In this document: positions 8,604-43,897 of the stretch, piece by piece
How the letters are laid out: each line of letters begins with the position of its first letter
Position numbering within the stretch: position 1 is the stretch's first letter
Assembly (NCBI GenBank): GCA_050949505.1
Contig: JBMNFV010000001.1
Coordinates: forward strand, 509,644 to 573,643
Source: Patescibacteria group bacterium
Lineage (GTDB): Bacteria; Patescibacteriota; Patescibacteriia; Patescibacteriales; UBA12465
DNA length: 64,000 bases
Reading direction: 5' to 3'
Position numbers and translations under genes: made by a program
Notes under the pieces: generated by a model
Databases searched by the model: none
Told to the model about the DNA's origin: nothing
Seen by the model: only the letters and a program-made list of their open reading frames with translations

Positions 8604-8606
8604 CTT

Positions 8607-20348: not shown

Positions 20349-21347
20349 TTAGTCAGAAGCTACTTCTTTTAGGGGGTGGAATTTTTGTTGAGTTTTCTCA
20401 GCATAACGATCAGAAGCGTGAACATAACGAGTGGTAGTGTCCAGGGACTCATGACCAAGCAGAATTTGAATAGCGGCCGGATTAGCTCCAGCTTCAGCTA
20501 AGTAGGTGGCAAAGCCATGGCGCAGAGAATGGGCGGAGATAGGGACATTGATTCCCAACAGTTCTCGGTATTGCTTTATTTTAGCCTGTAAATAGTTGGG
20601 GGATATTTTCTTGTGCTTAAGTTCTTTGGCCCTAAGCCCCCGGTAGGGAACAAAGGCATAGGGGGAGTCATCTAATCTAGTATTTAAATATTCAGTTAAG
20701 ATCTTCAGTGCCCGAGGAGTGAGGTAGACAAAACGCTCTTTCTTGCCTTTTCCTAAAATAAATATCCGACCGCTCTTATCTACTTGAGAAATTTTCAGAT
20801 TAACTAGCTCGGAAATACGCATCCCCGTAGAAAACAATACTTCCAGCATCGCCCTATTCCTTAAAGCTACTCGCTGGTCTTTCTCTATTTGCGAAGGATA
20901 CTCTATTAATCTAATTAATTCATCCAGCTCGGCTACCTGAGCCCTTTTCTTGATAGTTTTAATCATCTTGATCGCATCTGGTGGTAGGGGGGTATCATGG
21001 TCCATATCTATTAGATATTTCAAATAACTTCTTAGGACTGATAACATCCGATTGACTGAATAGGCGTTTAGTTGCTTCTCGCCGGGCTCTAAATTAGGGG
21101 TCTTTCTGTCTAAGGAGATTAATAGGGCCTTATAATTTAAAACATCTTTTTTAGTTAATTTAGCAAAAGACAAGCGACTCTCTAGGAGAAAGTTTTCAAA
21201 AACTTTTAAGTCTCGCTCATAATTATATAGAGTTTCTGGTGAGTAATTGTTAACTTGTAAGTTTAACAAAAAATCATCAAGTAGTGGCAGGGAAGACTCA
21301 ATCTGCTGATTAATATTTTTTTGTGACTGACTACTAGAATGATCCAT
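20349..21347 (-). CDS. tyrosine recombinase XerC/XerD-like
   Basis: N-terminal SAM-like domain (YSPETLYNYERDLKVFENFL). C-terminal catalytic AHSLRHGFATYLAEAGANPAAIQILLGHESLDTTTRYVH. Confidence 0.85.
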   Translation of the reverse strand: MDHSSSQSQKNINQQIESSLPLLDDFLLNLQVNNYSPETLYNYERDLKVFENFLLESRLSFAKLTKKDVLNYKALLISLDRKTPNLEPGEKQLNAYSVNRMLSVLRSYLKYLIDMDHDTPLPPDAIKMIKTIKKRAQVAELDELIRLIEYPSQIEKDQRVALRNRAMLEVLFSTGMRISELVNLKISQVDKSGRIFILGKGKKERFVYLTPRALKILTEYLNTRLDDSPYAFVPYRGLRAKELKHKKISPNYLQAKIKQYRELLGINVPISAHSLRHGFATYLAEAGANPAAIQILLGHESLDTTTRYVHASDRYAEKTQQKFHPLKEVASD

Positions 21348-23742: not shown

Positions 23743-24816
23743 TTAAGGCAGGGCGACCGTTCCTTGGCCGCGACTTAAATGGTCATAGTCTAAATTAGTG
23801 GTAACATTGTTAAGGTTATAGTGACTAACTTCAGCAATAATAGGGTCATAGGCATAGTATTTTACCTCATTAACTAGGGTAGGAATTTTACCTAACTGTC
23901 CTTCACTGGGAATAAATCTCACCTCAAAGCCTAGGCGGTAGGAGTCACCTGCTCCACTTAGCTCGGGTAAGGTCCAAACCATTTGTCGTAAAGAGGCATT
24001 ATAGGTGAAATTACCAGCTAACACCGAACGCTTCCCCGTTAGCTCTACACCTGGGGCTAATTTGCCACTAAATACCAAGTCCTTAAAGTCTCCATTACCC
24101 TGAACCTTAAAGAAGATCCAATAATTAGTCGGAATAGCCACTAATGGTGGTAAGGGACCAGTCCCTAATTGGTCTCCTTGGGGACTATGGTAATAGGCCT
24201 CAGCTGAGCCAGTTAATTGCGAAGCTAATTGAATATTATCTAGTTTAAGCTCTTTTTGCAGGGTTTGATTTAAGGCTAAATATTCTAATTCTGCTTGCCA
24301 AGATATTAGCTTTAAAGACTCAACTCGTGAACGCAAACTTAAGATCAGTTTCAAGTTTAGACTCTCTTGGGCGGTTAACTTGCTAATTAACAACTCATTA
24401 TTATTAATTACGACCCCCAATTCACCCTCAGCTAACTCTAGTTTATCTAACGATACCTGACGATCTGGAAAATTTAAATTAACCTTAATATCCTTAAGCT
24501 CTATAGGGCTGTCGTTAAATAATTCTAACTCTAACTCTACCGCCTCAGTTAAGTCTCGTAGCGCCCGGGGACTGCTAGCCTCTACCACTAGCGGCGGCGC
24601 TTCCTCATCTAATTGATACTTCGGTCCAGCCGACCAACTAAGCAGGCGATCACTAAATTCTGGTCGGAAATAGATAACTGCAATAAATAGGCCTAGTAAT
24701 AATAAAATTAAGCCAGCTAAGGATAGGTCATATAACATATTCCAGCGACTCTTAAAGAAATAGTGGTCTCGACGTCGCTTGAAATAATGTTTTTCTGGCT
24801 TAGGTTCGGTAGTCAT
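23743..24816 (-). CDS. single-pass membrane protein, 'GTGPLPP' family (paralogue of 55175-57151)
   Basis: TM segment LAGLILLLLGLFIAVIYF. The C-terminal block QLGTGPLPPLVAIPTNYWIFFKV...MVWTLPEL aligns with the C-terminus of the 658-aa protein. Confidence 0.8.
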   Translation of the reverse strand: MTTEPKPEKHYFKRRRDHYFFKSRWNMLYDLSLAGLILLLLGLFIAVIYFRPEFSDRLLSWSAGPKYQLDEEAPPLVVEASSPRALRDLTEAVELELELFNDSPIELKDIKVNLNFPDRQVSLDKLELAEGELGVVINNNELLISKLTAQESLNLKLILSLRSRVESLKLISWQAELEYLALNQTLQKELKLDNIQLASQLTGSAEAYYHSPQGDQLGTGPLPPLVAIPTNYWIFFKVQGNGDFKDLVFSGKLAPGVELTGKRSVLAGNFTYNASLRQMVWTLPELSGAGDSYRLGFEVRFIPSEGQLGKIPTLVNEVKYYAYDPIIAEVSHYNLNNVTTNLDYDHLSRGQGTVALP

Positions 24817-26885: not shown

Positions 26886-28166
26886 TTATTTAAGCTTAGG
26901 TTTAATTTCCTGTAAACCACCGACCAGGTATTTTTGTAAAATTGACGGAATCTTTATAGAGCCATCTGCTTGCTGATTATTTTCCATAATGGCAATTAGG
27001 CATCTAGTAATTGCTATGGCGGTTCCGTTAAGCGTATTTACTAAGTGCTTATTCCCCGCCTCATCTTGATATTTAATATTTAACGCTCGGGCCTGATAGT
27101 CGCCACAATCAGAGGTAGAGGTCACCTCCGCCCAATCACCCTGACTACCATCGGCAGCCGGCTTACCTGGCAACCAAGCTTCTAGATCAAAGGTTCGTCT
27201 AGCTGGTGTTCCTAAGTCAGCGGTACAGTGGTCCACCACCCGAAAAGGAATCTCTAAACCTTGAAAGATTTCCTTCTCTATTGCCAACAATTCCTGATGA
27301 GCTGACTCTGCCAATTCAGGTTTAACATATTGAAACATCTCTACTTTAGTAAACTGATGAACTCTAAAGATTCCCTTGGCAAACTTAGAGTATGAACCCG
27401 CTTCCGTTCTAAAGCAGTGAGACACCGCTGCATACCTCTTGGGCAGCTCACTAGCTAGCAAGACCTCATTTTGGTGATAGCCCCCTAGGGTGATCTCAGC
27501 GGTCCCTATCAAGCTCAGGTCTGAGTTCTCTAGATTATAAACTTGAGTAGACTCACCACGGGGATTAAAGCCTAAGCCCTCTAGGACTTCTCGCTTAGCT
27601 AAGTCTGGGGTTGTAAAGATAGTAAAACCTTTTTGCACTAAAATATCTAAAGCGTATTGAATCAAGGCAAACTCTAGTAGGGCTAATTCATTTTTTAAAT
27701 AATAAAACTTGGCCCCCGTCACTTTAGCGGCTCGCTCTAAGTCAATTAAATCTAATTCTTGCCCTAACTCTACATGGTCTTTAGGGGGAAAAGAAAACTT
27801 AGTTGGTTCTCCACTAATCTCTAGCACCGGGTTATCAGTTTCATCAGCACTAACCTTAACCTCTGGATGAGTTAAATTAGGGATAGTGATCATTATTTTT
27901 CTAAATTCTACTTGCTTATCTGCTAGGCTCACCTCTTCTTTTTTAAGCGCTTCGCCTAATTGCTTCATAGCCGTTATTATCTCAGCACTAGGTTTAGTCT
28001 TAGAAAAAGAATTGCGCTCCGCTCGCTTTTGGTCTATCCCTGCTTTAAGTTCCCGTATCTCCTCATCTAGTTGTAGCAGCCTATCTACATCTACCTCCAC
28101 TAGACGTTGGCGATTATTAGTTTTAATTAATTCCGGGTTTTCTCTAATTGTTTTTATATCTAACAT
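26886..28166 (-). CDS. serS: serine--tRNA ligase
   Basis: MLDIKTIRENPELIK..., an N-terminal coiled-coil arm and a class II core (FRVHQFTKVE, GTAIAITR). Confidence 0.93.
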   Translation of the reverse strand: MLDIKTIRENPELIKTNNRQRLVEVDVDRLLQLDEEIRELKAGIDQKRAERNSFSKTKPSAEIITAMKQLGEALKKEEVSLADKQVEFRKIMITIPNLTHPEVKVSADETDNPVLEISGEPTKFSFPPKDHVELGQELDLIDLERAAKVTGAKFYYLKNELALLEFALIQYALDILVQKGFTIFTTPDLAKREVLEGLGFNPRGESTQVYNLENSDLSLIGTAEITLGGYHQNEVLLASELPKRYAAVSHCFRTEAGSYSKFAKGIFRVHQFTKVEMFQYVKPELAESAHQELLAIEKEIFQGLEIPFRVVDHCTADLGTPARRTFDLEAWLPGKPAADGSQGDWAEVTSTSDCGDYQARALNIKYQDEAGNKHLVNTLNGTAIAITRCLIAIMENNQQADGSIKIPSILQKYLVGGLQEIKPKLK

Positions 28167-28171
28167 ATAAT

Positions 28172-29809
28172 TTATGAAGCGACTTCTCCACCAAAAGTCT
28201 TTAAAATATTATTAACTAAAGAATCAGTCACTGGCGAGTCAGCTACTGGCTCCTCCTCACTGACCTCTATCTTCTCCTCGGTCACTGACTTATTATTAGC
28301 TAGCTCTAAGTTCTCATTAACCGCTGGCTTAAAATCTAGCTGGCCAGCAAAAACCTCTTTAAGGGTAGCTAGAACCATCTCTCTAATAGCTGGGTCATTA
28401 ATGCGGTCATAGTGAAATTTATATTTAAAAGTTAAGTCTAGACAACCATCTTTCACTGCCCCTGGGGAACAATTTTGTAAAATAAAGGACAAGGAATGAT
28501 TATGCTTTTTTATTTTCACTAAAACCTCTGGCCACTTATCACTCACCTTGGCCTGACTTAAGCTATCTACTTTAGCTAAAGACTGCTTTTGACTAGCGGA
28601 ACTAAGTTCTTCCCTCTTATTAACTGGCTCTTTAGTGGCTGTTAACTGACTGGGTTCTTTACTAACTATTTGCTCAGTAGCCCTTGGTCTTGACAGGTCA
28701 AGTTCTTTACTTGAAGCTAAGTCTTGGCTTAAATTAATAATTGCTAGCTCAAAAGGTAATTGGGGAATGGCAGTATTTGGTCGCTCTAAAACTGTCAAAA
28801 AACTCTCTAAATACTGCACTATTTTTTCCCAACTCAGCTGGTCCACTAAAGCACTAATTTTAATTTCTAAAGACTCACCTAAATCCAATCCCAACTTATT
28901 GGCTAAACCTGGGCTAACTTTATCTAACATTATTTTTCTGAGCAGATAAATTAATTCATTATTAAACACTGACAAATTCACTCCTGCATCTACCAGCCTA
29001 TTTATCAAGGCAATCGCTTGGTCAGCATTTTTTTTGGCCAGTAAGTCAAGCAATTCTAAAGCCTCATGATTATTATGGTGAGGAATTATTAATTCCGCTT
29101 GCTCTAGACTAATCTTTTTATCCCCTAAAGCTAACACTTGTCCTAAGAGGCTTTCCGCATCACGTAAGTGGCCTGAAGATTTTCTGGCAATTGTTTCTAA
29201 CACTTCTTGGTCAACGGCTACCTGCTCGGTGGTGGTGATAAATTGAAGTTTTTTTACCACCTCCGCAATGCTAATTCTTTTAAAGTCAAAGCGTTCGCAA
29301 CGAGAAATGATTGTGCTAGGCACCTTTTGAATTTCTGTGGTACATAAAATGAAGATCACATAAGCTGGTGGCTCTTCAATGATTTTTAGTAAAGCGTTAA
29401 AGGCCGGTAAGGACAACATGTGGACCTCATCAATGATAAATACCTTATACCGAGAATTACTAGGACTAAGTCGGGAAAAGTTAATAATATTCTCCCGCAC
29501 ATTATCCACTCCAGTATTAGAGGCGGCGTCTATTTCCACTACATCCAGATTCTTACCTAAGTTGATATTTAGACAATTATCACACTCATTGCAAGGCTCA
29601 AACTCACCTGGCTGCCGCTTAAGACAATTAACTGACTTGGCCACCACTCGGGCTAAGGTGGTCTTCCCCACTGCTCGGGGTCCACAGAAAAGCAAAGCCT
29701 GAGCTATTTTATCAGCCTTAATTTCATTTTGTAAAGTTATTTTAATATGATTTTGCCCCAAGACTTCAGCAAAATTTTTGGGACGATAATCGCGATACAA
29801 GGTAGCCAT
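28172..29809 (-). CDS. dnaX: DNA polymerase III subunit gamma/tau
   Basis: LYRDYRPKNFAEVLGQNHI, Walker A GPRAVGKTT, FIIDEVHML, and a zinc module CNECDNC. Confidence 0.92.
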   Translation of the reverse strand: MATLYRDYRPKNFAEVLGQNHIKITLQNEIKADKIAQALLFCGPRAVGKTTLARVVAKSVNCLKRQPGEFEPCNECDNCLNINLGKNLDVVEIDAASNTGVDNVRENIINFSRLSPSNSRYKVFIIDEVHMLSLPAFNALLKIIEEPPAYVIFILCTTEIQKVPSTIISRCERFDFKRISIAEVVKKLQFITTTEQVAVDQEVLETIARKSSGHLRDAESLLGQVLALGDKKISLEQAELIIPHHNNHEALELLDLLAKKNADQAIALINRLVDAGVNLSVFNNELIYLLRKIMLDKVSPGLANKLGLDLGESLEIKISALVDQLSWEKIVQYLESFLTVLERPNTAIPQLPFELAIINLSQDLASSKELDLSRPRATEQIVSKEPSQLTATKEPVNKREELSSASQKQSLAKVDSLSQAKVSDKWPEVLVKIKKHNHSLSFILQNCSPGAVKDGCLDLTFKYKFHYDRINDPAIREMVLATLKEVFAGQLDFKPAVNENLELANNKSVTEEKIEVSEEEPVADSPVTDSLVNNILKTFGGEVAS

Positions 29810-29813
29810 AGGA

Positions 29814-32309
29814 TTATTTTTTTAATTGTTTGTTAGCCTCTTTAGCTCGTTGACTAATATCTGCTTCTACTAACTGCCGACTTTGCCCATACTTCAAGCG
29901 GCTAAGGGTTCTTATCTTCTCTCTAATTCCCTCTCGTTTCACCCCCAGAAGCGGCCAAGTGGTGTTTAGGGAAAAGGGCCGCAAGGAAGTATTATCTACC
30001 AACAACTTAACATTAGCCACAAACTTATCAACATTAATTAGGTCAAATTGATTGAAGACTGGAGAAAACTCTTTAACCAAAAATTCAGCATCCTCTGAGC
30101 CCACTTTAAAGCTAATCATGGTTCCCACATTACCAAAGACCGCATCCTTAATGGCTGTATCATTGTTTTTAGAAAGCTGTCCAATATATTGATGGGCAAT
30201 GATTAGATTCAGGGCATATTTTCTTGCTTCTGATAATATTTGACAAATGGAATTAGTGGTAAAGTTTTGAAACTCATCAATGTATAGGTAAAAATCTTTA
30301 CGCTTATCTGGATCCATGTCCGTCCTTGATAAAGCGGCTATCAAAATCTTTCCCACCAAAATCATTCCTAGCAAATTAGCATTGGTTTCACCAATAGTTC
30401 CTTTGGGGAGGTCCACTAACAAGATTTTTTGCTGGTCCATTAGTTCTCGGATATTGAAGGCGCTTTTTTGCTGACCAATAATCGGACGCATCATATCATT
30501 GGAGATAAAGGGGGTAAGCTTAGAGGTGATATAAGGAACTATATTAGCTAAAGCAGCTTCTCCTCCCGCCTTCTCGGCCTCCTTGTGCCAGAAGTCCACT
30601 ACTGTCTGATTGCTGCAGCGACTTAACTTATAGCGTCTAAAATCCTCATCAGCTAGCACCTTAGGAATCTCCATCAAGGTCGCCCCTGACTCGGGGTCAT
30701 CCATAACTAACAACATAGCATTTCTCATGTATTGCTCAAACATCGGTCCACCAGTGGCCTTGAGGTCATATAGCTTATCTAAAATACTAATCATTTCGTT
30801 AATCACAAAAGACCTTTGCTCTGGATAATTTTCATCGTATTCTAGTAAATTTAATGCGAGCGGACGCTCTAAGTCTCCCGGAGAAAAAATGATTACATCC
30901 TCAGCTCGCTCAGGAGGAATTCTATCTAAGACGTCTTGGATTAAGTCTCCATTAGGATCAAAGACACAAACCCCTTCCCCGGCCTGCACGTCTTGAATGA
31001 TCATATTAGCTAGCAAGACCGACTTTCCTACTCCTGACTTACCGACTATGTAAGTATGTCGCCGCCTATCAGCTCGCTTGATTCTAATCTCTTTTTTCAC
31101 TCCCCGATAAATATTATTCCCCAAAGAGATTCCCTCGCTAGGCACCTCACTTGGAGCCGGAGCTGACTTAGAGGCTAGCCATAAAATATTAGGAGTCTCG
31201 GTAGACTTCAGGGGAAAATGAAAAATACTAGCTAGCTCCTCACTGTTTAACAAAAAACTTTGCTTCTCCTGAAACCGTCGGTAGATAAAGTCGGAAATTA
31301 AGCGATTGCTCCGTCCCCGACGAGCCCGAGAAAAATTATTGCCATAAGTATAATTATTGTACTCAGCAAAGTGTGAGGCAATGTTTTCTAAATACCGATT
31401 AGAATTTTCTATTGATTGAGTGTTAACGATAATTCGCAAATTAACATCCAGGCCGGTTTTAAGGTTCTTCTCTTCAATCGCCTTTACCATCTCGCTCTCT
31501 ACCGCTGACAATTGCTTAGGTTCTTCTAGGTTAGGCTTATCGGTTTTTTTAGGGGGGTTAATAATTTTAAATATTTTATCAAAGCGACGAAAAGGATTAT
31601 TGCTTTTTAACCCAGCTGATACTGAGCCACTTTTGTTAATCGCCCTAACCACCTCTTGTGACTTCTTGTGCCAACTGGCTCGGGCACTTCTAACTAAATA
31701 CTGAAGAGCAATACTTTCATCTTTATCTAGCTTAGACAAGGAGTTAATGAGTGAGTTAAGGGGGTCAACCTCCATTTTTTGATAAGTTTTAAGCGGAAAG
31801 AATGATTGCTTTTTAGTCTTAAGAAAAGCGGCCGCTGTGCAGCTTTGAGGACTAAAGATATTATAGTCTTCAATAGGCTCTATTACTGCCTCTGGGTAAT
31901 AGGCTTGAATTTGTTGCTCTAAATAACGAACGTGGTGTTTAGTGGCAGTCACATAAAAAGCAATACGCTGTTGATTGGCTACTATTTCAAAGGAAAAGAT
32001 GTCTCGCCGACCAAATAACCAAGCCTTAAAGCCCTTCTCAGCTCTTAGTCCGCCAATGGCCGAGAAAACAGTTTCTCCACGAGCAATCTCCTCTTTAATT
32101 TCTGCCAAAGAAAAGCCTTTTTGAGCATCCTCTGGCTTTTCTTTAGGTAATTTAACTAAAAATACTTGATGGTCAGAATAGCTTTTTCCCGAAAGAACCC
32201 TTCTTAAGATATTTAAAATTAAGACTAATAAACTGGCAACTAAAAATAACAATAGGACTAAGCCAATGATATTGGGAACTAAAGATAGATAACTATTAGT
32301 CATTTCCAT
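29814..32309 (-). CDS. membrane-anchored VirD4/TraD/TrwB-like P-loop NTPase with large lineage-specific N-terminal domain
   Basis: N-terminal TM. Walker A YIVGKSGVGKS (aa 420-430, nt ~31020-31050) and Walker B FYLYIDEFQNF. The N-domain (aa ~45-375) is homologous to the ORF at 60890-62311. Confidence 0.8.
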   Translation of the reverse strand: MEMTNSYLSLVPNIIGLVLLLFLVASLLVLILNILRRVLSGKSYSDHQVFLVKLPKEKPEDAQKGFSLAEIKEEIARGETVFSAIGGLRAEKGFKAWLFGRRDIFSFEIVANQQRIAFYVTATKHHVRYLEQQIQAYYPEAVIEPIEDYNIFSPQSCTAAAFLKTKKQSFFPLKTYQKMEVDPLNSLINSLSKLDKDESIALQYLVRSARASWHKKSQEVVRAINKSGSVSAGLKSNNPFRRFDKIFKIINPPKKTDKPNLEEPKQLSAVESEMVKAIEEKNLKTGLDVNLRIIVNTQSIENSNRYLENIASHFAEYNNYTYGNNFSRARRGRSNRLISDFIYRRFQEKQSFLLNSEELASIFHFPLKSTETPNILWLASKSAPAPSEVPSEGISLGNNIYRGVKKEIRIKRADRRRHTYIVGKSGVGKSVLLANMIIQDVQAGEGVCVFDPNGDLIQDVLDRIPPERAEDVIIFSPGDLERPLALNLLEYDENYPEQRSFVINEMISILDKLYDLKATGGPMFEQYMRNAMLLVMDDPESGATLMEIPKVLADEDFRRYKLSRCSNQTVVDFWHKEAEKAGGEAALANIVPYITSKLTPFISNDMMRPIIGQQKSAFNIRELMDQQKILLVDLPKGTIGETNANLLGMILVGKILIAALSRTDMDPDKRKDFYLYIDEFQNFTTNSICQILSEARKYALNLIIAHQYIGQLSKNNDTAIKDAVFGNVGTMISFKVGSEDAEFLVKEFSPVFNQFDLINVDKFVANVKLLVDNTSLRPFSLNTTWPLLGVKREGIREKIRTLSRLKYGQSRQLVEADISQRAKEANKQLKK

Positions 32310-32312
32310 ATT

Positions 32313-32786
32313 TTAAAATCTATTCTTAATTTTAATTATTTTATCAGCCTTGATTTTTGCCTCCTGCTCTAAGAAAAATTTATTAACCCCCGGAATTAAT
32401 TTTAACCAATCTTTAATTAGCTTAACAATTTTATTAACCCGCACTTTAGTCTCTGATAATAACTGATTTATCTTCAGTACAGTTTTTTCTCCCTCAGCTT
32501 TAAACCTCTCTTGTTGCTTAGTCTCTAGTTGTAAAAAAATATTATGCAAACCATCCGCTAAAATATTATCTATCTCCTTAATGCGCTCGCTAAGACCTTC
32601 ATCCGCCGCAACTGGTGCTGGCCGAGGGGGAGCTAAGGGTTTAGTGGGACTAATCGGCTTAACTGCTTCACTGGGTTTTTCTAGAGCCGACTTCTCCCCT
32701 ATCTGCTCCTGACTAGGCTCAGTCTCTAAAGGAGTACCGACTTGCTCAGGAGATAGCTTAATTTTTTCTAAAGAGGACTCTGGCAT
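32313..32786 (-). CDS. hypothetical protein (Pro-rich N-terminus, coiled-coil C-terminus)
   Basis: 157-aa ORF, 3 nt upstream of the ATPase gene. No family recognised. Confidence 0.65.
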   Translation of the reverse strand: MPESSLEKIKLSPEQVGTPLETEPSQEQIGEKSALEKPSEAVKPISPTKPLAPPRPAPVAADEGLSERIKEIDNILADGLHNIFLQLETKQQERFKAEGEKTVLKINQLLSETKVRVNKIVKLIKDWLKLIPGVNKFFLEQEAKIKADKIIKIKNRF

Positions 32787-32828
32787 AGAATAATTTGGAT
32801 AATAATAAAAATAATTAGCCAGTCATCT

Positions 32829-32857
32829 ATTTTAGCTGTTTGCTAATTAACTGACAA
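32829..32857 (-). promoter_or_regulatory. sigma70-type promoter for the long minus-strand gene string starting at 32786
   Basis: Minus-strand TTGTCA (32857-32852), 17-nt spacer, TAAAAT (32834-32829). Confidence 0.5.
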
Positions 32858-32961
32858 AGTTTTATAAATTTCTTTTTATTTAACCTAAGAGTATTATAGC
32901 ATAATTTTAAAATAATAAAAGGCTAAAATTAGCCTGACAGCTTCCTAAATTCCCCTACTAG

Positions 32962-32990
32962 TTGACATTTTGATTGAAGTAAGTTAATAT
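32962..32990 (+). promoter_or_regulatory. sigma70-type promoter for rpmA
   Basis: TTGACA 32962-32967, 17-nt spacer, TAATAT 32985-32990. Confidence 0.55.
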
Positions 32991-33072
32991 TTCTTTAGTA
33001 ATAAAAATTAATTAAGTTAATTGTTATTAAATAGCTAAATTATCGTTTTTGGCTATTTAAATTTGTATAAAT

Positions 33073-35983: not shown

Positions 35984-37708
35984 TTAATCCATACTATCTC
36001 GCCGCTCTCTAACATACTTAGTCCAATCATCGGCGATCTCCACTAAAATCTTAAACGGCGCTTCTAAGATAAAGTCAAAAATGAAAATAAAAATATTAAT
36101 TTTAGAGAAACTATTGGACAGCCACTTTCCAGCCATAATAATAGGCATGTAGAATAGATCAACTAAAAAGGTTAACAAATTTTCCCGTCGATCAATTATA
36201 ATCAAATCTTTCACTCCCTTAGTAACTACGATACTAAAGAAACTAACAAAGGCCAAGAAAAATAGGAAGATAATGACGCTTACCCAATTAAAGTTGATCA
36301 AATATAGTACTCGTGTAATTAAATAGACAGAAAAGACGAAAGAAGCGAAATAAAGTAGACCAAAGAAAACTGATAAAACCATATTACGCTTAGCTGGTTT
36401 TCGCAAGATAATTGGTGTTTTTCGAGCCTGACCGGCAAAGGAAATTTCCTTAATTCCCTTAACTATTTTATCGGTATTATTATCCTTGGGCAATCTAATT
36501 AACAAAACCATGAAGAATAGTAGTACGGCGGGAAAAGAAATATTAATTGCTAGCGCCAAAGCATTAACTGACTCGCCAAACCAAGCTACCGCTGGTAGTT
36601 CTATAGCTACTACAAAAATAGATTTAGTGAGAAATATATAAATAATACTTCTAATCGCGGCTCGCCAGAGACGACTTTTAGCTTTTTTGTATTTAGACTG
36701 ACAAGTCTTACGGAGATTGGCAATAAAATCCTGGTCACCAGTTTGCAAGTCTTGATATAGTTTAGCTGGGTCATTTTCAATAGTTTCTGCTAAAACTGTA
36801 TAATACAAAGAATATACTCTAGTAATTTTATCCAGCTGTCTCCTTAGAGGATGCTTTAGCTGCTCCTTTATCTGATCATTAAGTTCTATTATCTGACTAG
36901 CCACTAAATTTATTTTCCCTTGCTCTTCCTCATTTAAACCGGACTCTTGGCCAATTTCCAGCCAACCAGCATTATAATACTTAAACAAAACAAAGCTAAG
37001 CAAGTCTTCATCTGATTTTAGATAAGTTCTGCCAATGCTTAAATAAATTTGAATTGCCAGATCTTGACGATAAGGTAGGCCAGTAGAAAGTTCAATATTT
37101 TTAGATAAAACCTCAAATAAATTATTAACAATTACTTGCTTAACCTTATTAGGCGATAAATTTTCTTCTATCTCACAAGCGGCTAAGACTAAAAGCCAAT
37201 TGTTAATCTTGTTCTTTTTATTAATCAAGTCCCGAGCCGTTGCTAAATCAGCTTTAAATGACAAGGTTGGCGACAAGTTCTCAGAAACTTGGTCTCGTAA
37301 ATATATATATTTTTCTAAAATAGTTTCAATCTCTCCTATTTTAGCTTCGGGAATCTGATTATTAGGCAAATAACTACCCCTGATTAATTCTGTTAATAGG
37401 TGAGTGGCTAGCTGTTCACTGCTAGCTTCCTTGATTACCCCTTCAATCATTATCTGCCGTCGCAGAATACGAGCAATTGCATTTTTTCTCAGCCGATGGT
37501 CCTCGTCATAGTCAACCGCATTACGAACTTTTTCATAAATAAAAGCTAAGCGAGAGACTAGATTAGAAACTTTAATTTTTGGAGCATCATCAGTCACTTC
37601 TGCCTTGTTTTGCTCACTATAAATTACCTGAAAAAGCCTTTTGGCACTATCAGTTAATTCCACTGCTTCTGCTACCTTCTTTCTTTTGATTAAATTTGGA
37701 CTAACCAT
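35984..37708 (-). CDS. hypothetical polytopic membrane protein
   Basis: Long ORF with a soluble N-terminal half and about 6 TM segments in the C-terminal half. The ATG at 37708 is preferred because the track's TTG at 37765 is the -35 hexamer of a promoter. Confidence 0.75.
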   Translation of the reverse strand: MVSPNLIKRKKVAEAVELTDSAKRLFQVIYSEQNKAEVTDDAPKIKVSNLVSRLAFIYEKVRNAVDYDEDHRLRKNAIARILRRQIMIEGVIKEASSEQLATHLLTELIRGSYLPNNQIPEAKIGEIETILEKYIYLRDQVSENLSPTLSFKADLATARDLINKKNKINNWLLVLAACEIEENLSPNKVKQVIVNNLFEVLSKNIELSTGLPYRQDLAIQIYLSIGRTYLKSDEDLLSFVLFKYYNAGWLEIGQESGLNEEEQGKINLVASQIIELNDQIKEQLKHPLRRQLDKITRVYSLYYTVLAETIENDPAKLYQDLQTGDQDFIANLRKTCQSKYKKAKSRLWRAAIRSIIYIFLTKSIFVVAIELPAVAWFGESVNALALAINISFPAVLLFFMVLLIRLPKDNNTDKIVKGIKEISFAGQARKTPIILRKPAKRNMVLSVFFGLLYFASFVFSVYLITRVLYLINFNWVSVIIFLFFLAFVSFFSIVVTKGVKDLIIIDRRENLLTFLVDLFYMPIIMAGKWLSNSFSKINIFIFIFDFILEAPFKILVEIADDWTKYVRERRDSMD

Positions 37709-37736
37709 AATAATTTTTATCTTAAATGCTACGGCT

Positions 37737-37765
37737 ATTATAGTCTTTTTTTTTAAAAAAAGCAA
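37737..37765 (-). promoter_or_regulatory. sigma70-type promoter for 35984-37708
   Basis: Minus-strand TTGCTT (37765-37760), 17-nt spacer, TATAAT (37742-37737). Confidence 0.55.
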
Positions 37766-40066: not shown

Positions 40067-43000
40067 TTACTCTTCTAGGTCAAGTTCCAGATACTCAGCT
40101 GGCTGACCATACCAATTAGGTATTTCTTCCTTAACTATAAAGCCGGATCGTTTTAGGGCGGTGTTAAGTCGCGGGTTAATGCCATGAAGACTGATCTTTT
40201 TGTAGCCTAGTTTCTTTGCCTTCTCCTTTAACTGATTAAGGGTTCTAAAGGGGTCCACTTTACCAGCGATTGAATCAACGTATAAGGTAGCTTCATCTTT
40301 ATCATAATTATGATCAGGAACTTCTAGCAGGTTAGCGCTATAGGCAGACAGATAACCCACCGCCTTGTTTTTTTCAGTAAAGAGAAAAGATATGGCTCTT
40401 GCTTGACTCATATTATTTAAAATATCTTCAATATCTTCGTTTAAGCCTTTATCACCAAAGATGCTATCCTCTATTTCCTCTATCTGTTGAGCCATAGCTT
40501 CTAAAGAAGAATTATGCTGAGCGGTTAAAGTCGCAAAACCTGTTTCTGTATTAGGGTACTCTTCTTGAACTCCTCGTTCTAGATCGTAAGTAATCACTAG
40601 TCCTTCTTGAGTTAAGCTCTCTTTCTTTTCTGGTGTCTTCTTATCTTCTCGCTGGTCCCAAATCTTGCCTAACTCTTGATGGTTAAAGGCTTCTAAATAA
40701 TAGCGGCCAGAACGATTAGCGATGTTAGCGGTGTACTTAGATAGATAGCCAGAAATAGTATCAACCTGAGGAACTCTCATCCGATTATCTTTGCTCCAAT
40801 TTTTCCAATCAATATCATTGGTTCCCACTAGCCCTAAGCCAGCTCCAGCTAGACCAACTTCTTTGGCATAATCTTTAGCAAATTGGAATAGATTATCTCT
40901 GAGACTATTATTGATATGCGGGTCTTTGGTATAGTTATTATTTAACTCAATATTATCAAGAACTAGAATTGGCTCACCATCGGAGTTCTTAGAAACAAAG
41001 ATCCAGGTATTACCAATAGGATCTCGCTTCCCTTCTTCTAAGATTTCAATCACATTAATACCGGTGTCGGCTAGGTACTGCATAACCGTGGAGGGGTCAT
41101 GGGTAGTTAGTCCACCACCAACTGGGGCATCTTTTACACCAACGGCAATACAACACTGAGAATAGTTGCCTTGAAAGAGATCTTTCTTAGGGTCTCTATC
41201 CCAAAGCTTAACTCTAAAACCTCGTTCTCTTTGTTCAGTTTCTTTAAAGTTAGGCTTATTCATATCTACTACCGCTTCTTCTAGATGGCCAAGATATTCA
41301 TAAACTGTGGGCCATTCTGGAAAATTACTATACTCTTCTTTATTCTGTAAATTATTTATTCTTTCTTTTAGATTGTTAAACTGCTCCTGTAACTGATTAG
41401 AACTATTTAATCCCTTTTTGTCTTTACCTTCTAGTATGTGTAATAGTGGTTGATATTCTCTAGAGCTTAGTTTGTCTTTTAGAGGAGCTAAGGCATTGAT
41501 AACATCCGTCACTCTGGCACTTAATATTGATTGGTAATGTTCTTTTCTATCTATCTCTACCTCAGTTGAGACTAGAAAGTCTTGGGTTGCTTCATATTTT
41601 AGCCACTTAGCAAAATCAATACCGTTATCGGTAAATATTTCTTTAACCTTACTATTGTGTAAAGCGACATCTTGTCCCACTTCATCATCTTGATTAGTAT
41701 CAAAAAGAAAATTGTCAAACTCATTTTTAAAGCTGGCTTTTAGAAGGGACCTGTATAGCTCTCTGGCGTTATCCATACCTCTGCTTTCTAACATTTGATC
41801 ATTGGAGACTAAGTTGGGAAGATATTCTGTCTTCCAATCTTCTCTTTTAGTTTTTATTTCATCCTCTGACACGCCTACTTCTTCAGCGATAAAGGCGAGT
41901 AGCTGTTGACTAGCTTGCTCATTGAGGTTGGGACTATTCTCAGCTACTAATTGAGAGAGGGTCTCTATTTTATCACTCTTTTGATAAGCATTAACTATTT
42001 CTAAAAAGGTGCCTAGTTCATGAGGATGGGAGAAGGAGTTATTATCCAGAGCTGCTTGAATCAGCTCTCTATTTCTTGTTTGATCAAAAATGTTTTTGTA
42101 AAGCTCTAGGTAGCCATTAAACTTGGGAAGTCCTTCGTTAATGTGTTCTTTAATGAGTCCGAGTATTAAAGGACTTTCTAAAGATAGCATCTGAGCAATG
42201 GTGATACTATTAGCAGCAAAGAAAGCTTCCGGTTCTCTAACTTTTTTAGATTCTTCTTGTATCCCCTCATTAACTGAAACTCCTAGAGATACTAGAGATT
42301 GATAAGTAGGATAAATACCATTTTTCTTGTTTATGTCTTCTAATGATTTATTATTAAATAGTGATAGCCTAATAGATTCTTGTAAGAAGGACTGATCTTC
42401 TTCTCTCTGCTCTTTTATATATGATTTAATAGATTTAGCGGTGGGATTATTGAAGTTTAAGATATTTGCCTTTTGCATAACTTGAAGTATCTTAGCGTAA
42501 TCGCTCCACCAGCCATTATCAGCACTGCCCTTTAGCCCTACCCTTGCTTCTTCTTCTGTGATATCTAAACCTACCTTTGACATGACTTGAAGTATGCTAG
42601 CGTAACCGTTCCACCAGCCATCATTAGCGCTGCCCTTTAATCCTGCCCTTGCTTCTTTTGTGATATCTAGACCTGCCTCTGACATGGTTTTAAGTATGCT
42701 AGCGTAACTGTCCCACCTGTCCTCATTAACACTACTACTTAACCCTCTCCTTGCTTCTTCTGTAACACTTAAACCTGCCTCTGACATGATTTGAAGTATC
42801 TTAGCGTAATCGCTCCACCAGCCCTTATCAGCACTGCCCTTTAGTCCTACCCTTGCCTCTTCTTCTGTAACACTTAAACCTGCCTCTGACATGATTTGAA
42901 GTATCTTAGCGTAATTGCTCCACCAGCCCTTATCAGCACTGCCTTTTAATCCTGCCCTTGCCCCTTCTTCTGTAACACTTAAACCTGCCTCTGGCATGGT

Positions 43001-43897
43001 TTGAAGTATGCTAGCGTAATTGCTCCACCTGCCCTTATCAGCACTATTCTTTAGTCCTGCCTCTGCTTCTTTTGTGATATCTAGACCTACCTTTGACATG
43101 GTTTGAAGTATGCTAGCGTAATCGCTCCACCAGTCCTTATCAGCACTGCCCTTTAATCCTGCCCTTGCCTCTTCTTCTGTAATGCCTAAACCTGCCTCTG
43201 ACATGGTTTGAAGTATTCTAGCGTAACTGTCCCACAAGCCCTTATCAGCACTGCCCTTTAATCCTACCCTTGCCTCTTCTTCTGTAACACTTAAACCTGC
43301 CTCTGACATGGTTTGAAGTATGCTAGCGTAATTGCTCCACCTGCCCTTATCAGCACTATTCTTTAGTCCTGCCTCTGCTTCTTTTGTGATATCTAGACCT
43401 ATCTCTGATATGGTTTGAAGTATGTTAGCGTAATCGTTCCACCAGCCCTTATCAGCACTGCCCTTTAGTCCTGCCTTTGCCTCTTCTTCTGTAACACTTA
43501 AACCTGCCTCTGGCATGGTTTGAAGTATCTTAGTGTAATCGTCCCACTTATTCTTAGCGGCATTATCTTTTAAATTTTTATCTAAACAAAGCTCTATATC
43601 AATAACTTGGGCAATATTTCTTTTTTCTTGTAAGGCTTCTCGTTCTAGTTTTTTTAGTGCTTCTGAGTCTTCTGAGTTTTTATTATAATAATCAAGAGCT
43701 TCAAAGAAGATTTTACTACTCACATCTTCCATTTTTCTTTTATCTAATAGTTCTCCGTCAAAATTCCATTTGTGAGGCTTAAGGTCTTGGCCATACTTTA
43801 GTTCTAAGTCTGCTGGGATAAACCTTTTAAGAAACTCTCGCTTAGTTTTCTTTTTTTCTATTCTTTGTCTAATATTTAAATTAAATCCTTTTTCCAT
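40067..43897 (-). CDS. giant multidomain protein: ~11 tandem 34/35-aa helical repeats, unknown central Cys-containing domain, GNAT-like C-terminal domain
   Basis: 1276-aa uninterrupted ORF. Repeats occupy aa ~104-480. The central motif is LWDRDPKKDLFQGNYSQCCIAVG. The C-terminal ~150 aa looks like a GNAT fold (AVGYLSAYS...LYVDSIAG...KLGYKKISLHGINPRLNTALKRSGF). No signal peptide. Confidence 0.85.
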   Translation of the reverse strand: MEKGFNLNIRQRIEKKKTKREFLKRFIPADLELKYGQDLKPHKWNFDGELLDKRKMEDVSSKIFFEALDYYNKNSEDSEALKKLEREALQEKRNIAQVIDIELCLDKNLKDNAAKNKWDDYTKILQTMPEAGLSVTEEEAKAGLKGSADKGWWNDYANILQTISEIGLDITKEAEAGLKNSADKGRWSNYASILQTMSEAGLSVTEEEARVGLKGSADKGLWDSYARILQTMSEAGLGITEEEARAGLKGSADKDWWSDYASILQTMSKVGLDITKEAEAGLKNSADKGRWSNYASILQTMPEAGLSVTEEGARAGLKGSADKGWWSNYAKILQIMSEAGLSVTEEEARVGLKGSADKGWWSDYAKILQIMSEAGLSVTEEARRGLSSSVNEDRWDSYASILKTMSEAGLDITKEARAGLKGSANDGWWNGYASILQVMSKVGLDITEEEARVGLKGSADNGWWSDYAKILQVMQKANILNFNNPTAKSIKSYIKEQREEDQSFLQESIRLSLFNNKSLEDINKKNGIYPTYQSLVSLGVSVNEGIQEESKKVREPEAFFAANSITIAQMLSLESPLILGLIKEHINEGLPKFNGYLELYKNIFDQTRNRELIQAALDNNSFSHPHELGTFLEIVNAYQKSDKIETLSQLVAENSPNLNEQASQQLLAFIAEEVGVSEDEIKTKREDWKTEYLPNLVSNDQMLESRGMDNARELYRSLLKASFKNEFDNFLFDTNQDDEVGQDVALHNSKVKEIFTDNGIDFAKWLKYEATQDFLVSTEVEIDRKEHYQSILSARVTDVINALAPLKDKLSSREYQPLLHILEGKDKKGLNSSNQLQEQFNNLKERINNLQNKEEYSNFPEWPTVYEYLGHLEEAVVDMNKPNFKETEQRERGFRVKLWDRDPKKDLFQGNYSQCCIAVGVKDAPVGGGLTTHDPSTVMQYLADTGINVIEILEEGKRDPIGNTWIFVSKNSDGEPILVLDNIELNNNYTKDPHINNSLRDNLFQFAKDYAKEVGLAGAGLGLVGTNDIDWKNWSKDNRMRVPQVDTISGYLSKYTANIANRSGRYYLEAFNHQELGKIWDQREDKKTPEKKESLTQEGLVITYDLERGVQEEYPNTETGFATLTAQHNSSLEAMAQQIEEIEDSIFGDKGLNEDIEDILNNMSQARAISFLFTEKNKAVGYLSAYSANLLEVPDHNYDKDEATLYVDSIAGKVDPFRTLNQLKEKAKKLGYKKISLHGINPRLNTALKRSGFIVKEEIPNWYGQPAEYLELDLEE
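42460..43590 (-). repeat. tandem coding repeat, unit 102/105 bp, about 11 copies
   Basis: Consensus unit GLKGSADKGWWSDYAKILQTMSEAGLSVTEEEARA. It includes a 94-nt perfect duplicate (42995-43088 = 43307-43400). Confidence 0.9.

Follow-up and report, generated by a model that had tools for sequence, protein, structure and literature searches.

A near-universal Patescibacteria coupling-type ATPase with a predicted VirB4-like N-terminal domain: a candidate domesticated conjugative coupling protein

Introduction

Coupling proteins of type IV secretion systems (T4CPs) may work with small helical partners, as Cag-beta does with CagZ and TraD with TraM (see also the title of PDB entry 8dol). In the Patescibacteria (CPR), host-dependent organisms that account for a large share of bacterial diversity, a genome survey counted 5,713 T4CPs in 2,918 of 3,035 genomes (96%) and VirB4 in 2,417 of the same 3,035 (80%), the latter forming a CPR clade of its own encoded elsewhere; only 148 of the 5,713 T4CP genes lie near virB4, and the orphan status of these T4CPs is already published (Quinonero-Coronel et al. 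2025, PMC12102498). The same study found the t4cp gene of Southlakia epibionticum not essential for epibiotic growth while the T4SS genes are essential, and raised the possibility of exaptation (PMC12102498). For the Patescibacteria T4SS, essential in the sole species screened by Tn-seq, neither a substrate nor a relaxase is known, nor a coupling protein encoded in its cluster (PMC10633639, PMC12102498). The gene described here is a near-universal candidate for that missing coupling function.

Results

Locus and gene order

The window, a 64,000-nucleotide stretch of a Patescibacteria contig (JBMNFV010000001.1), holds the gene in a compact run:

32787-33072, minus strand: divergent intergenic region between rpmA (L27, plus strand) and the partner/T4CP operon
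32313-32786, minus strand: small partner ORF (type A), 157 aa (ORF list)
29814-32309, minus strand: DUF8128-T4CP gene, 831 aa plus stop (ORF list, Pfam, precomputed PF26449, AlphaFold model)
28172-29809, minus strand: DnaX-like gene (clamp-loader tau/gamma), 545 aa (similarity to relatives' genes)
26886-28166: SerS-like ORF, downstream of the DnaX-like ORF

A sequence-only reading of this DNA had placed an 831-aa ORF behind a Pro-rich 157-aa ORF with a gap of 3 nt, followed by dnaX, serS, FG-GAP, alr and ftsQ genes, and the ORFs and domain matches agree with it throughout: the downstream genes are spaced 1-26 nt apart, and those after the SerS-like ORF encode a GHL15/FG-GAP protein, a 357-aa protein with no Pfam match, an alanine racemase and an FtsQ-type POTRA protein. 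The T4CP stop codon lies 4 nt from the start of the DnaX-like ORF, whose counterparts in relatives bear DNA_pol3_delta2/DNA_pol3_gamma3, and the two genes are probably co-transcribed. The best promoter-like site of the divergent intergenic region, TTGTCA-17-TAAAAT at 32857-32829, is a consensus match only and, with 34 such sites seen against 27.6 expected in the scanned region, is not significant on its own. GC content is even across the window (0.34-0.42), in which no tRNA or Rfam match was found. Pfam scanning of 32 window ORFs, the partner and T4CP genes included, returned no VirB4, VirB6, relaxase or pilin, and phmmer searches with plasmid VirB4, TcpC, TcpE, VirB6, PrgI and Replic_Relax queries returned nothing from the 51 window ORFs of at least 120 aa. 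The earlier statements that the window carries no further T4SS or conjugation gene and is not a classical conjugative element thus hold.

The ATPase half

The C-terminal half of the protein has the following parts:

29817-31124, minus strand: T4CP (VirD4/TrwB-type) P-loop ATPase domain with C-terminal helical tail, aa 396-831 (Pfam, Foldseek, profile)
31020-31043, minus strand: Walker A, GKSGVGKS, aa 423-430 (motif position in sequence)
30435-30818, minus strand: all-alpha insertion between the Walker A and Walker B halves, aa ~498-625 (model and TrwB_AAD_bind)
30261-30290, minus strand: Walker B, YLYIDEFQNF, aa 674-683 (motif position in sequence)

Residues 412-746 match the Pfam models TrwB_AAD_bind (PF10412; 40.1 bits, cut-off 20.5), T4SS-DNA_transf (PF02534; 29.6 bits, cut-off 20.1) and TraG-D_C (PF12696; 23.6 bits, cut-off 22), together with DUF87, which at 24.3 bits barely exceeds its cut-off of 23.2. 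Searched against PDB sequences, the A2 profile found TrwB (1.3e-7) and DotL (3.3e-4) and gave no VirB4 match. In Foldseek the C-terminal half matched TrwB with TM-scores of 0.59-0.67 (normalised to TrwB, ~425 residues), and Cag-beta was also matched. The predicted insertion comprises eight helices, from residues 498-514 to 620-625 in the AlphaFold secondary structure, and is placed where TrwB has its all-alpha domain (AAD). Among 150 homologues G423, G426, G428 and K429 of Walker A and D678 and E679 of Walker B are invariant. All curated NCBIfam T4CP models (equivalogs for TraD, TraG, CD1115 and others) fell far short of their cut-offs, with TIGR03743 highest at 55 bits where 366 are required and NF045973 at 33 bits against 250; as judged from these profiles, the T4CP match is at the superfamily level only. 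Walker A lies exactly where the sequence-only reading had put it, the Walker B sequence is the one that it named, and its assignment of this half to a VirD4/TraD/TrwB-type coupling ATPase is confirmed by the Pfam, profile and Foldseek matches.

The N-terminal domain and the membrane anchor

Ahead of the ATPase lie:

32184-32294, minus strand: N-terminal membrane-anchor helix, aa 6-42 (sequence; AlphaFold)
31125-32177, minus strand: DUF8128 N-domain, alpha/beta, aa 45-395 (~350 aa) (precomputed PF26449; model)
31212-31241, minus strand: EELASIFHFP, aa 357-366 (motif position in sequence)

The single N-terminal transmembrane (TM) segment proposed earlier corresponds to a hydrophobic core at aa 8-35 within what AlphaFold predicts as one helix, aa 6-42, and unfused homologues have an N-terminal hydropathy of 2-3.7. 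The core is followed by positive residues (RR..K: R36, R37 and K42) and, with these on the C-terminal side of the anchor, the remainder of the protein should be cytoplasmic.

Residues 1-400 gave no match in the Pfam and NCBIfam copies that we used, that Pfam copy lacking the PF26449 model. The precomputed Pfam annotation of a 100%-identical 831-aa protein assigns the N-domain to PF26449, named DUF8128 in UniRef, and PF26449 is present on all 240 homologues listed and in the gene tables of relatives. The domain ends in EELASIFHFP...TPNILW, and E108, F118, N150, F152, Q203, W213, K281, R344, E358 and H364 are invariant in 150 homologues. A model of the N-domain alone (pLDDT 92.8, pTM 0.89) was compared with the PDB by Foldseek: all 14 hits with E<=2e-4 were TrwK/VirB4 chains (E 4e-6 to 2e-4, TMq 0.42-0.48), the next hit beyond them stood at E=1e-2, and HerA was absent from the fold hits. 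The full-length model aligned collinearly with VirB4 over about 900 columns. HHalign against one VirB4 sequence, that of pBM69, gave a probability of 3% and nothing in the N-terminal half. The predicted structure thus suggests that DUF8128 folds like the N-terminal domain of VirB4, a modelled likeness that is structural only and has TM-scores below 0.5. What the N-domain of VirB4 does is, for its part, known only in outline.

Of what the sequence-only reading said about this region, a large domain ending in ELASIFHFP stands, while its description as unrecognised does not, the domain being already catalogued as PF26449/DUF8128 and VirB4-like in its predicted fold. That reading had also held that a match to a known domain would count against it, and these two results together go part of the way to such a match.

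Two types of small partner

The N-terminal half of the 157-aa protein is Pro/Glu-rich and of low complexity, as had been noted; its C-terminal half reads as helical from the sequence alone and closes with the conserved motif WLxxIPGVNxFFLEQEAKIK. The protein lacks a TM segment and has no match in Pfam, NCBIfam or PADLOC, and the HMM of its family (type A) finds this ORF and no other in the window. Jackhmmer detected type-A homologues in 33 of 86 CPR loci, and in 31 of these the homologue immediately precedes the T4CP gene. A second, type-B protein, unrelated to type A (HHalign probability 0.3%), is encoded upstream in 25 loci, so that types A and B together place a small helical protein upstream in 58 of the 86. 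In 13 further loci the type-B partner is fused to the N-terminus of the ATPase, where the TM helix is missing; the membrane anchor is therefore not universal. Fusion in place of the TM helix marks the small protein as a likely physical partner, and the fused forms argue for direct binding between partner and ATPase. By analogy with TraM for TraD and CagZ for Cag-beta, the partner may act as an adaptor or regulator of the ATPase.

Distribution and inheritance in Patescibacteria

The gene occurs in at least 599 species genomes over the CPR lineages. NCBI names its homologues 'type IV secretory system conjugative DNA transfer family protein' or 'TraM recognition domain-containing protein', and the family is most probably the same as the orphan T4CPs counted previously (PMC12102498). 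How similar a homologue is to the window protein follows how similar its DnaX is (identities, r=0.91), and in 27 of 29 genomes the T4CP identity is the higher of the two (53% versus 46%), which points to strong selection on a gene more conserved than the clamp loader itself. In 38 of the 86 loci, among them nearly all of the 33 with a type-A partner, dnaX follows the gene at a distance of 4 nt to 5.6 kb; this linkage outlasts the decay of the remaining synteny and is missing from most Paceibacteria-type loci. Synteny with housekeeping genes is kept across genomes, and a Xer-like recombinase is part of the conserved gene order. Within 10 kb of the gene in the 86 loci no Replic_Relax, VirB4, TcpC, TcpE or VirB6 was found, and CPR do not keep a nuclease, helicase or channel partner beside it. 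The CPR gene has lost its conjugation context and behaves as a core gene.

Relatives in plasmids, archaea and phages

Relatives are present in 376 plasmids, 27 of which cover at least 80% of the query. Conjugative plasmids of monoderms and archaea encode DUF8128 joined to the ATPase, with 23-28% identity across 80-88% of the length; the pBM69 protein (WP_003349917), for example, aligns to aa 101-828 with E=3e-48. Its operon encodes, in this order, the T4CP, Replic_Relax, TcpC, a 'conjugal transfer protein' whose B. subtilis counterpart is annotated TcpE, AAA_10/VirB4, a VirB6-like protein and a lytic transglycosylase. The plasmid homologue thus coexists with a true VirB4 (AAA_10, 399 bits) and adjoins a relaxase-like gene, which is the position of a T4CP. 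A haloarchaeal plasmid encodes DUF8128 and the ATPase in two adjacent genes (HHalign probability 99.2%). All characterisable cellular contexts outside CPR are conjugation modules. Among Bacillus phages, G (gp156) and JL encode the same two-domain protein and Slash has the N-domain fold; phages are not known to carry a T4SS. From the TM-less fusions and the phage homologues it is evident that the DUF8128-ATPase module need not accompany a membrane channel. Taken together, these relatives define an uncharacterised T4CP architecture common to conjugative plasmids of Bacillus, actinomycetes, cyanobacteria and archaea and to some Bacillus phages.

Discussion

The family is not itself new, PF26449 having been catalogued. 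New here are its plasmid, archaeal and phage relatives, its co-divergence with DnaX, the two partner types and the TM-less fusions, together with the model-based prediction that DUF8128 resembles the VirB4 N-domain in fold; the literature that we searched contains no mention of DUF8128 and no description of the domain make-up, small partner or role of the protein.

On our best reading, the orphan T4CP of Patescibacteria is a vertically inherited chromosomal descendant of the conjugative T4CPs of monoderms and archaea, with a VirB4-N-like module before the ATPase. We put at about even odds (roughly 0.5) that it is a domesticated conjugative coupling protein, probably acting in trans with the relaxase-less CPR T4SS. 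The protein would assemble as a TrwB-like ring at the membrane and hydrolyse ATP. Its VirB4-like N-domain might, as we purely infer, dock onto the VirB4/VirB3/VirB6 platform of that T4SS encoded elsewhere, and a macromolecular substrate, nucleic acid or protein, would be fed into the channel or received from it; relaxase-dependent plasmid conjugation would not be among the activities of the CPR protein. The sequence-only reading had proposed a stand-alone membrane translocation motor, which our results do not demonstrate; the nearest relatives outside CPR are T4CPs in complete monoderm conjugation modules, and, since a VirB4-type T4SS is encoded elsewhere in 80% of CPR genomes (PMC12102498), a role in trans is no less likely.

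A serious rival, which we consider possible though doubtful, is that the protein has been exapted as an autonomous core motor that works with its small partner and has no need of the CPR T4SS, in DNA or RNA handling or translocation at the membrane or in the cytoplasm, in chromosome- or replication-linked processing, or in nucleic-acid uptake. Several observations suit such a motor: T4CPs are more widespread than VirB4 (96% versus 80% of genomes), the S. epibionticum t4cp is non-essential despite an essential T4SS (PMC12102498), TM-less fused forms exist, and phages encode the two-domain protein or its N-domain fold, points that also count against a T4SS link; T4CPs are rarely near virB4 (PMC12102498), conservation exceeds that of DnaX, and dnaX linkage persists. 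Against it, every characterisable non-CPR cellular context is a conjugation module, CPR genomes conserve no nuclease, helicase or channel partner alongside the gene, and the dnaX linkage, missing as it is from most Paceibacteria-type loci, may be inherited gene order and not function. A simple FtsK-replacement role looks unlikely, on the sole basis that the TM7x gene TM7x_00370 is annotated ftsK (PMC10768705). We think it rather unlikely that the protein and its small partner are a T4SS-independent Patescibacteria core machine of conjugative ancestry, a motor for nucleic acid or protein, whose VirB4-like N-domain and VirD4-like ATPase represent a surviving intermediate of the divergence between VirB4 and coupling proteins; were this true, and were the substrate host nucleic acid, it would be a missing feeding component of nucleotide-auxotrophic epibionts.

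It is very improbable that the protein is really a VirB4-type T4SS assembly ATPase mis-scored as a T4CP, in spite of a TM/N-domain/ATPase layout like that of VirB3-VirB4 fusions, a length of ~830 aa typical of VirB4, full-length Foldseek hits in which TrwK/VirB4 comes first (E about 3e-14, ~900 aligned columns) and outranks TrwB, and an N-domain that matches only VirB4 among solved structures. The Pfam T4CP models score above their cut-offs where AAA_10 and CagE_TrbE_VirB give no hit, TIGR00929 reaches 23 bits against a cut-off of 643, the plasmid homologue sits in the T4CP position of an operon that already has a true VirB4, and CPR have their own VirB4 clade elsewhere (PMC12102498).

Less probable still is a HerA- or MADS-like defence or DNA-repair ATPase. 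The PADLOC 'mad8' match (E=1.7e-15), the weak matches to HerA models, the DUF87 match, HerA among the Foldseek hits, and N-domain-less relatives that adjoin a DNA methylase and a recombinase on IMG/VR contigs would suit it, but the matches cover the generic ATPase fold only, mad8 falling on the ATPase half, and the picture of a HerA or FtsK protein with a HAS-barrel or FtsK gamma domain does not fit, FtsK_SpoIIIE scoring 16 bits against a cut-off of 24 and HerA being absent from the N-domain fold hits. Nearby in the window there is no methyltransferase (or other MADS component), nuclease, NurA, Sir2 or other defence partner, and a core gene, syntenic and present in nearly all CPR, does not look like part of a defence island.

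An integrated conjugative or mobile element that serves or once served ordinary conjugation, with the gene as its cargo or remnant, is close to refuted: the family is of conjugative origin and a tyrosine recombinase gene lies 8.5 kb from the T4CP gene (20349-21347), but relaxase, VirB4, VirB6 and TcpC were found neither in the window nor within 10 kb in the 86 loci, no relaxase, VirB4 and integrase module, patchiness or compositional anomaly was found, GC is uniform, the gene is closely packed with dnaX and serS in one operon, the order of genes, with the Xer-like recombinase included, is kept from genome to genome, and the protein co-diverges with DnaX.

Whether the candidate coupling protein serves the CPR T4SS in trans is now a testable question, given a predicted VirB4-like, docking-type domain, a dedicated small partner tied to it by gene fusion, and descent from Replic_Relax-associated plasmid T4CPs.

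Comparison with known systems

Like the orphan T4CPs counted in PMC12102498, the protein is chromosomal, near-universal in CPR, away from virB4 and without a relaxase; that study gives T4CP counts and does not describe the N-domain, small partner, fusions, dnaX linkage or plasmid relatives. The pairing of a T4CP with a small, mostly helical protein recalls Cag-beta/CagZ and TraD/TraM and is seen here in gene order and fusions; homology is not detectable.

With VirB4/TrwK (R388; PDB 7o43, 8rtd) the protein has in common an N-domain of similar predicted fold followed by an FtsK/HerA-type ATPase, about 800 aa in all, but its sequence matches no VirB4 family and its ATPase half is nearer to T4CPs. 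With TrwB, VirD4, TraD, Cag-beta and DotL it shares a membrane anchor at the N-terminus, a P-loop ATPase into which an all-alpha region is inserted, and the TraG-D_C region, at an identity of only 14-16%; it differs in the extra ~350-aa VirB4-like domain between anchor and ATPase, in having no adjoining relaxase or T4SS, and in its one TM helix where TrwB has two.

The plasmid T4CPs encoded beside Replic_Relax genes, annotated as 'DUF87 domain-containing' or 'TraM recognition domain-containing' (Bacillus, Streptomycetaceae and haloarchaeal plasmids; for example Embleya WP_331738717), differ from the CPR protein in lying within complete conjugation operons (Replic_Relax, TcpC, TcpE, VirB4, VirB6, hydrolase) and in having neither a type-A nor a type-B partner, and further in lacking the TM helix in the Bacillus forms and in encoding the haloarchaeal N-domain as a separate gene; yet they have the same two-domain architecture and share with the CPR protein the N-domain motifs SxEIVA, PxKTY and EE(L/M)AxxxxxP.

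Gene and genomic setting

The open reading frames, gaps and motifs described in the sequence-only reading were all reproduced exactly in the window sequence, including the 831-aa coupling ATPase (T4CP), the 157-aa ORF 3 nt upstream of it, and the downstream run of genes with gaps of 1-26 nt encoding DnaX-like, SerS-like, GHL15/FG-GAP, 357-aa, alanine racemase and FtsQ-type POTRA proteins. The names of the DnaX-like and SerS-like ORFs derive from Pfam domains in the corresponding genes of relatives, and the 357-aa protein, which is syntenic among relatives, has no match in Pfam.

29814-32309, minus strand: T4CP, 831 aa
31020-31043: Walker A motif GKSGVGKS, aa 423-430 of the T4CP
aa 674-683 of the T4CP: Walker B motif YLYIDEFQNF
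aa 357-366 of the T4CP: motif EELASIFHFP
32313-32786, minus strand: small ORF of type A, 157 aa
28172-29809: dnaX
23743-24816, minus strand: 357-aa protein

The window comes from an unremarkable part of a Patescibacteria (CPR) chromosome: its GC content is even (0.34-0.42), and it has ribosomal-protein, tRNA synthetase and cell-wall genes. Pfam scans and phmmer searches of the window ORFs bore out the earlier statement that no other type IV secretion (T4SS) or conjugation gene is present; a tRNA and Rfam search of the window found none, and a promoter and terminator scan gave no excess over chance. In two close relatives, a 56-57-aa ORF lies between rpmA and the partner gene (L001:9335-9508, where it encodes a 4Fe-4S ferredoxin, and L003:9289-9459), whereas the 286-nt spacer of the window (32787-33072) contains no same-strand ORF of at least 20 aa. 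Further minus-strand ORFs lack a meaningful Pfam match: 40067-43897 (1,276 aa), 35984-37765 (593 aa, which by its sequence looks like a multi-pass membrane protein), 1411-3654 (747 aa), 60890-62311 (473 aa) and 50899-52383 (494 aa). Two DUF4012 proteins, at 4372-6243 on the plus strand (623 aa) and 57170-59752 on the minus strand (860 aa), flank glycosyltransferase, Wzy and Wzz-like genes in what is probably a surface-polysaccharide region.

A coupling-protein ATPase behind a domain of predicted VirB4-like fold

The domain order and the invariance of the catalytic motifs are established. The earlier assignment of the ATPase was correct, with aa 412-746 scoring above the Pfam cut-offs for TrwB_AAD_bind, T4SS-DNA_transf and TraG-D_C, and by sequence this half is a T4CP (TrwB, 1.3e-7; DotL, 3.3e-4), VirB4 being absent among the matches; scores against the curated T4CP equivalogs of NCBIfam all fell far under their cut-offs. 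Seven listed homologues of 1,267-2,006 aa (P0212, P0220, P0242, P0246, P0256, P0262 and P0265) continue for 400-1,200 aa past the ATPase at their C-terminal end; in the five scanned (P0212, P0220, P0246, P0256 and P0262) this extension has no Pfam match and therefore gives no clue to function.

The N-domain, previously described as unrecognised, corresponds in precomputed annotation to a Pfam domain of unknown function (PF26449, DUF8128), although neither it nor the 157-aa partner matched NCBIfam or a Pfam copy lacking PF26449. Searched alone against 1.84 billion representative proteins, aa 40-395 retrieved 1,926 clusters, and in the best 150 of these the domain starts, fragments aside, ~40-150 residues from the N-terminus. 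AlphaFold2 modelled the full-length protein with confidence (pLDDT 93, pTM 0.87, from a 150-sequence alignment), placing a single long helix at the N-terminus (aa 6-42), then an N-domain of alpha/beta type (aa 45-395), then the ATPase with a helical insertion (aa ~498-625). Foldseek ranked TrwK/VirB4 first for this model (E ~3e-14, collinear over ~900 columns), followed by TrwB, for which only ~425 columns aligned (TM 0.59-0.67, normalised to TrwB). With a model of the N-domain only (pLDDT 92.8), the 14 best matches to solved structures were all TrwK/VirB4 chains (E 4e-6 to 2e-4, probability 1.00, TM-score normalised to query 0.42-0.48), the next match having E=0.011. TrwB, HerA and FtsK chains were absent from these 14, and the likeness is therefore to the N-terminal domain of VirB4 and not to its ATPase. 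HHalign of the sequence profile used for T4CP comparisons against pBM69 VirB4 gave a probability of 3%, its alignment being limited to a portion of the ATPase; sequence methods are blind to the relation, which is thus drawn wholly from predicted structure. On these models DUF8128 is VirB4-like in nature, an assignment newly added by this analysis.

Behavior as a core gene in CPR genomes

A scan with one genome per species found the T4CP gene in at least 599 genomes spanning all major CPR lineages, and 86 loci were retrieved with up to 10 kb on either side of the gene. Within the clade of the window the order L27, small ORF, T4CP, dnaX, serS, GHL15, 357-aa protein, alr, ftsQ, xer is kept, and in remoter genomes the small upstream ORF and downstream dnaX alone persist. 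A downstream dnaX is found in 38 of the 86 loci (window copy, and L005-L067), at distances from 4 nt to 5.6 kb, an association that could be functional or mere ancestral gene order; in L006, dnaB, ybaB and recR are also nearby. Identity to the window T4CP tracks DnaX identity in the same genome (r=0.91) and exceeds it in 27 of 29 cases (mean 53% vs 46%), with 62% for the ATPase half and 45% for the N-domain; strong purifying selection on the protein is established.

Searched by phmmer, none of the 86 loci carries Replic_Relax, VirB4, TcpC, TcpE or VirB6 within 10 kb, and with PrgI added to the queries and the window to the targets the sole match was the P-loop of the T4CP itself, although very divergent homologues could escape because the queries were single sequences. 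Linkage to relaxase and T4SS genes has been lost, and this, together with the synteny and the co-divergence with DnaX, marks the gene as core and inherited vertically, and not as part of a mobile element, in keeping with the initial view that this is not a classical conjugative element. The CPR-type gene also occurs in several TPA_asm MAGs whose titles read 'uncultured Gammaproteobacteria', 'Bdellovibrionales', 'Bacillota' or 'Methylomirabilota' (L013-L015, L017, L023, L026, L028, L030, L040 and others), several with a CPR-type partner ORF upstream, and their organism labels are probably wrong.

Two small partners and a fusion

The T4CP has a dedicated partner. Homologues of the 157-aa ORF (type A) occur in 33 loci, in 31 of them directly upstream of the T4CP gene and either overlapping it or at most 353 nt away, while in 25 other loci the same position is taken by another small ORF, type B, which is 58-167 aa long and has the motif KG..A...A....D.Y.LD.FHD.L. 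The two profiles are unrelated (HHalign probability 0.3%), and both types are absent from the plasmid and viral loci searched. Neither type was found in 15 of the 86 loci, seven of which have less than 200 nt upstream of the T4CP gene. In 13 further loci (L063, L064, L068, L069, L072-L074, L078, L079, L082-L084 and L086) a type-B domain, ~150 aa in these Paceibacteria-type homologues, is fused to the T4CP N-terminus, giving ORFs of 910-968 aa. This fusion provides Rosetta-stone evidence that the small protein may bind the ATPase near its N-domain. Exactly these 13 fused T4CPs lack the TM helix, with a maximum hydropathy of at most 1.13 vs 1.8-3.7 in full-length unfused forms, and membrane anchoring is therefore dispensable in some lineages.

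Relatives on plasmids and in viruses

Relatives were found by tblastn in 376 PLSDB plasmids, with Bacillus (102), Streptomyces (87), Staphylococcus (32), Clostridium (23), Nostoc (16), Sulfolobus (11) and several haloarchaea represented; in 27 of the 376 the alignment spans 80% or more of the query, most of the N-domain included, with identities of 23-28%. The pBM69 protein matches aa 101-828 with E=3e-48 and has N-domain motifs in common. Three plasmids (pBM69, one from B. subtilis and one from Embleya) have the T4CP gene in a monoderm conjugation operon of standard type, with a Replic_Relax (PF13814) gene directly after it and, nearby, genes for TcpC, TcpE, a separate VirB4 (AAA_10, 399 bits), a cell-wall hydrolase and a VirB6-like protein. 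The architecture therefore marks out a class of conjugative coupling proteins, distinct from VirB4, and the conjugative ancestry of the CPR protein is established.

The N-domain model also matches gp156 of Bacillus phage G (825 aa, E=4e-18, TM-score normalised to query 0.64) as well as proteins from JL and Slash, which like G are large Bacillus phages, and the GenBank phage collection yielded matches at 21-24% identity to the ATPase half alone. The fold is present in BFVD entries G3MBM2 (gp156), G3MBM1 (gp155), S5MSQ0 (JL) and U5Q0H6 (Slash); the two phage G genes are adjacent, and gp156 matches the ATPase half too. Eight IMG/VR contigs (L091-L098) encode ATPase-half relatives of 411-582 aa without N-domain and TM helix, which at 34-41% identity are closer than the two-domain plasmid forms and may represent a second paralogue of the T4CP, carried by mobile or defence elements; one copy (L092:4953-6701) adjoins a serine recombinase and an N6/N4 DNA methylase.

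Proposed mechanism

We propose, with a probability of about one half, that the protein forms a TrwB-like ring ATPase at the membrane, that its VirB4-like N-domain would dock it onto the VirB4/VirB3/VirB6 platform of a CPR T4SS encoded elsewhere, that the small partner may serve as adaptor or regulator, and that the substrate would be nucleic acid or protein, and not a relaxase-piloted plasmid.

The main rival, a motor exapted to work independently of any T4SS, is a serious but less probable candidate. It is supported by the wider distribution of the T4CP than of VirB4 (of 3,035 genomes of Patescibacteria, 2,918 have VirD4-type T4CP homologues, 5,713 in total, and 2,417 have VirB4; Quinonero-Coronel et al. 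2025, PMC12102498), and by the t4cp gene of Southlakia epibionticum being dispensable for epibiotic growth where T4SS genes are essential (PMC12102498). The TM-less fused T4CPs, the phage homologues and the persistent dnaX linkage also speak for it, and exaptation 'cannot be ruled out' according to the same study (PMC12102498). The readings as a true VirB4 and as an ICE remnant are both poorly supported. So is a HerA/MADS-type defence ATPase; the match to PADLOC 'mad8' (E=1.7e-15) is confined to the ATPase half. Replacement of FtsK was dropped as a main reading, TM7x having one gene annotated ftsK (PMC10768705), an annotation that comes from TM7x and not from the lineage of the window.

Comparison with known systems

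Both the family and its orphan status were documented before. An identical protein is present in public databases, along with over 3,600 homologues, and in all 240 listed homologues PF26449 (DUF8128 in UniRef) followed by T4CP domains is precomputed; their NCBI names are 'type IV secretory system conjugative DNA transfer family protein', 'TraM recognition domain-containing protein' or 'DUF87 domain-containing protein'. Only 148 of the 5,713 Patescibacteria homologues lie near virB4, and relaxases are nearly absent (PMC12102498); the literature gives about two T4CPs per CPR genome. The N-domain is not discussed by Quinonero-Coronel et al. 2025 (PMC12102498) or Wang et al., no mention of 'DUF8128' was found in the searchable literature, and a T4SS nomenclature review mentions neither a DUF87 nor a Replic_Relax T4CP. 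New here are the VirB4-like DUF8128 suggested by the models, the link to Replic_Relax plasmid T4CPs, the two partner types with their fusion, and the core-gene behavior.

On a Halorussus limi plasmid (NZ_CP096663.1, L090), DUF8128, matched by HHalign with 99.2% probability and E=2e-19, is encoded by a gene of its own that overlaps the beginning of the ATPase gene.

7866-8996: DUF8128 gene, 376 aa
8986-12009: 'TraM recognition domain' ATPase gene, 1,007 aa

Upstream of the DUF8128 gene are a second ATPase gene (1,092 aa) and a pilin gene, and the locus looks like an archaeal T4SS. The free-standing DUF8128 gene recalls TrsD, a free-standing fragment of VirB4.
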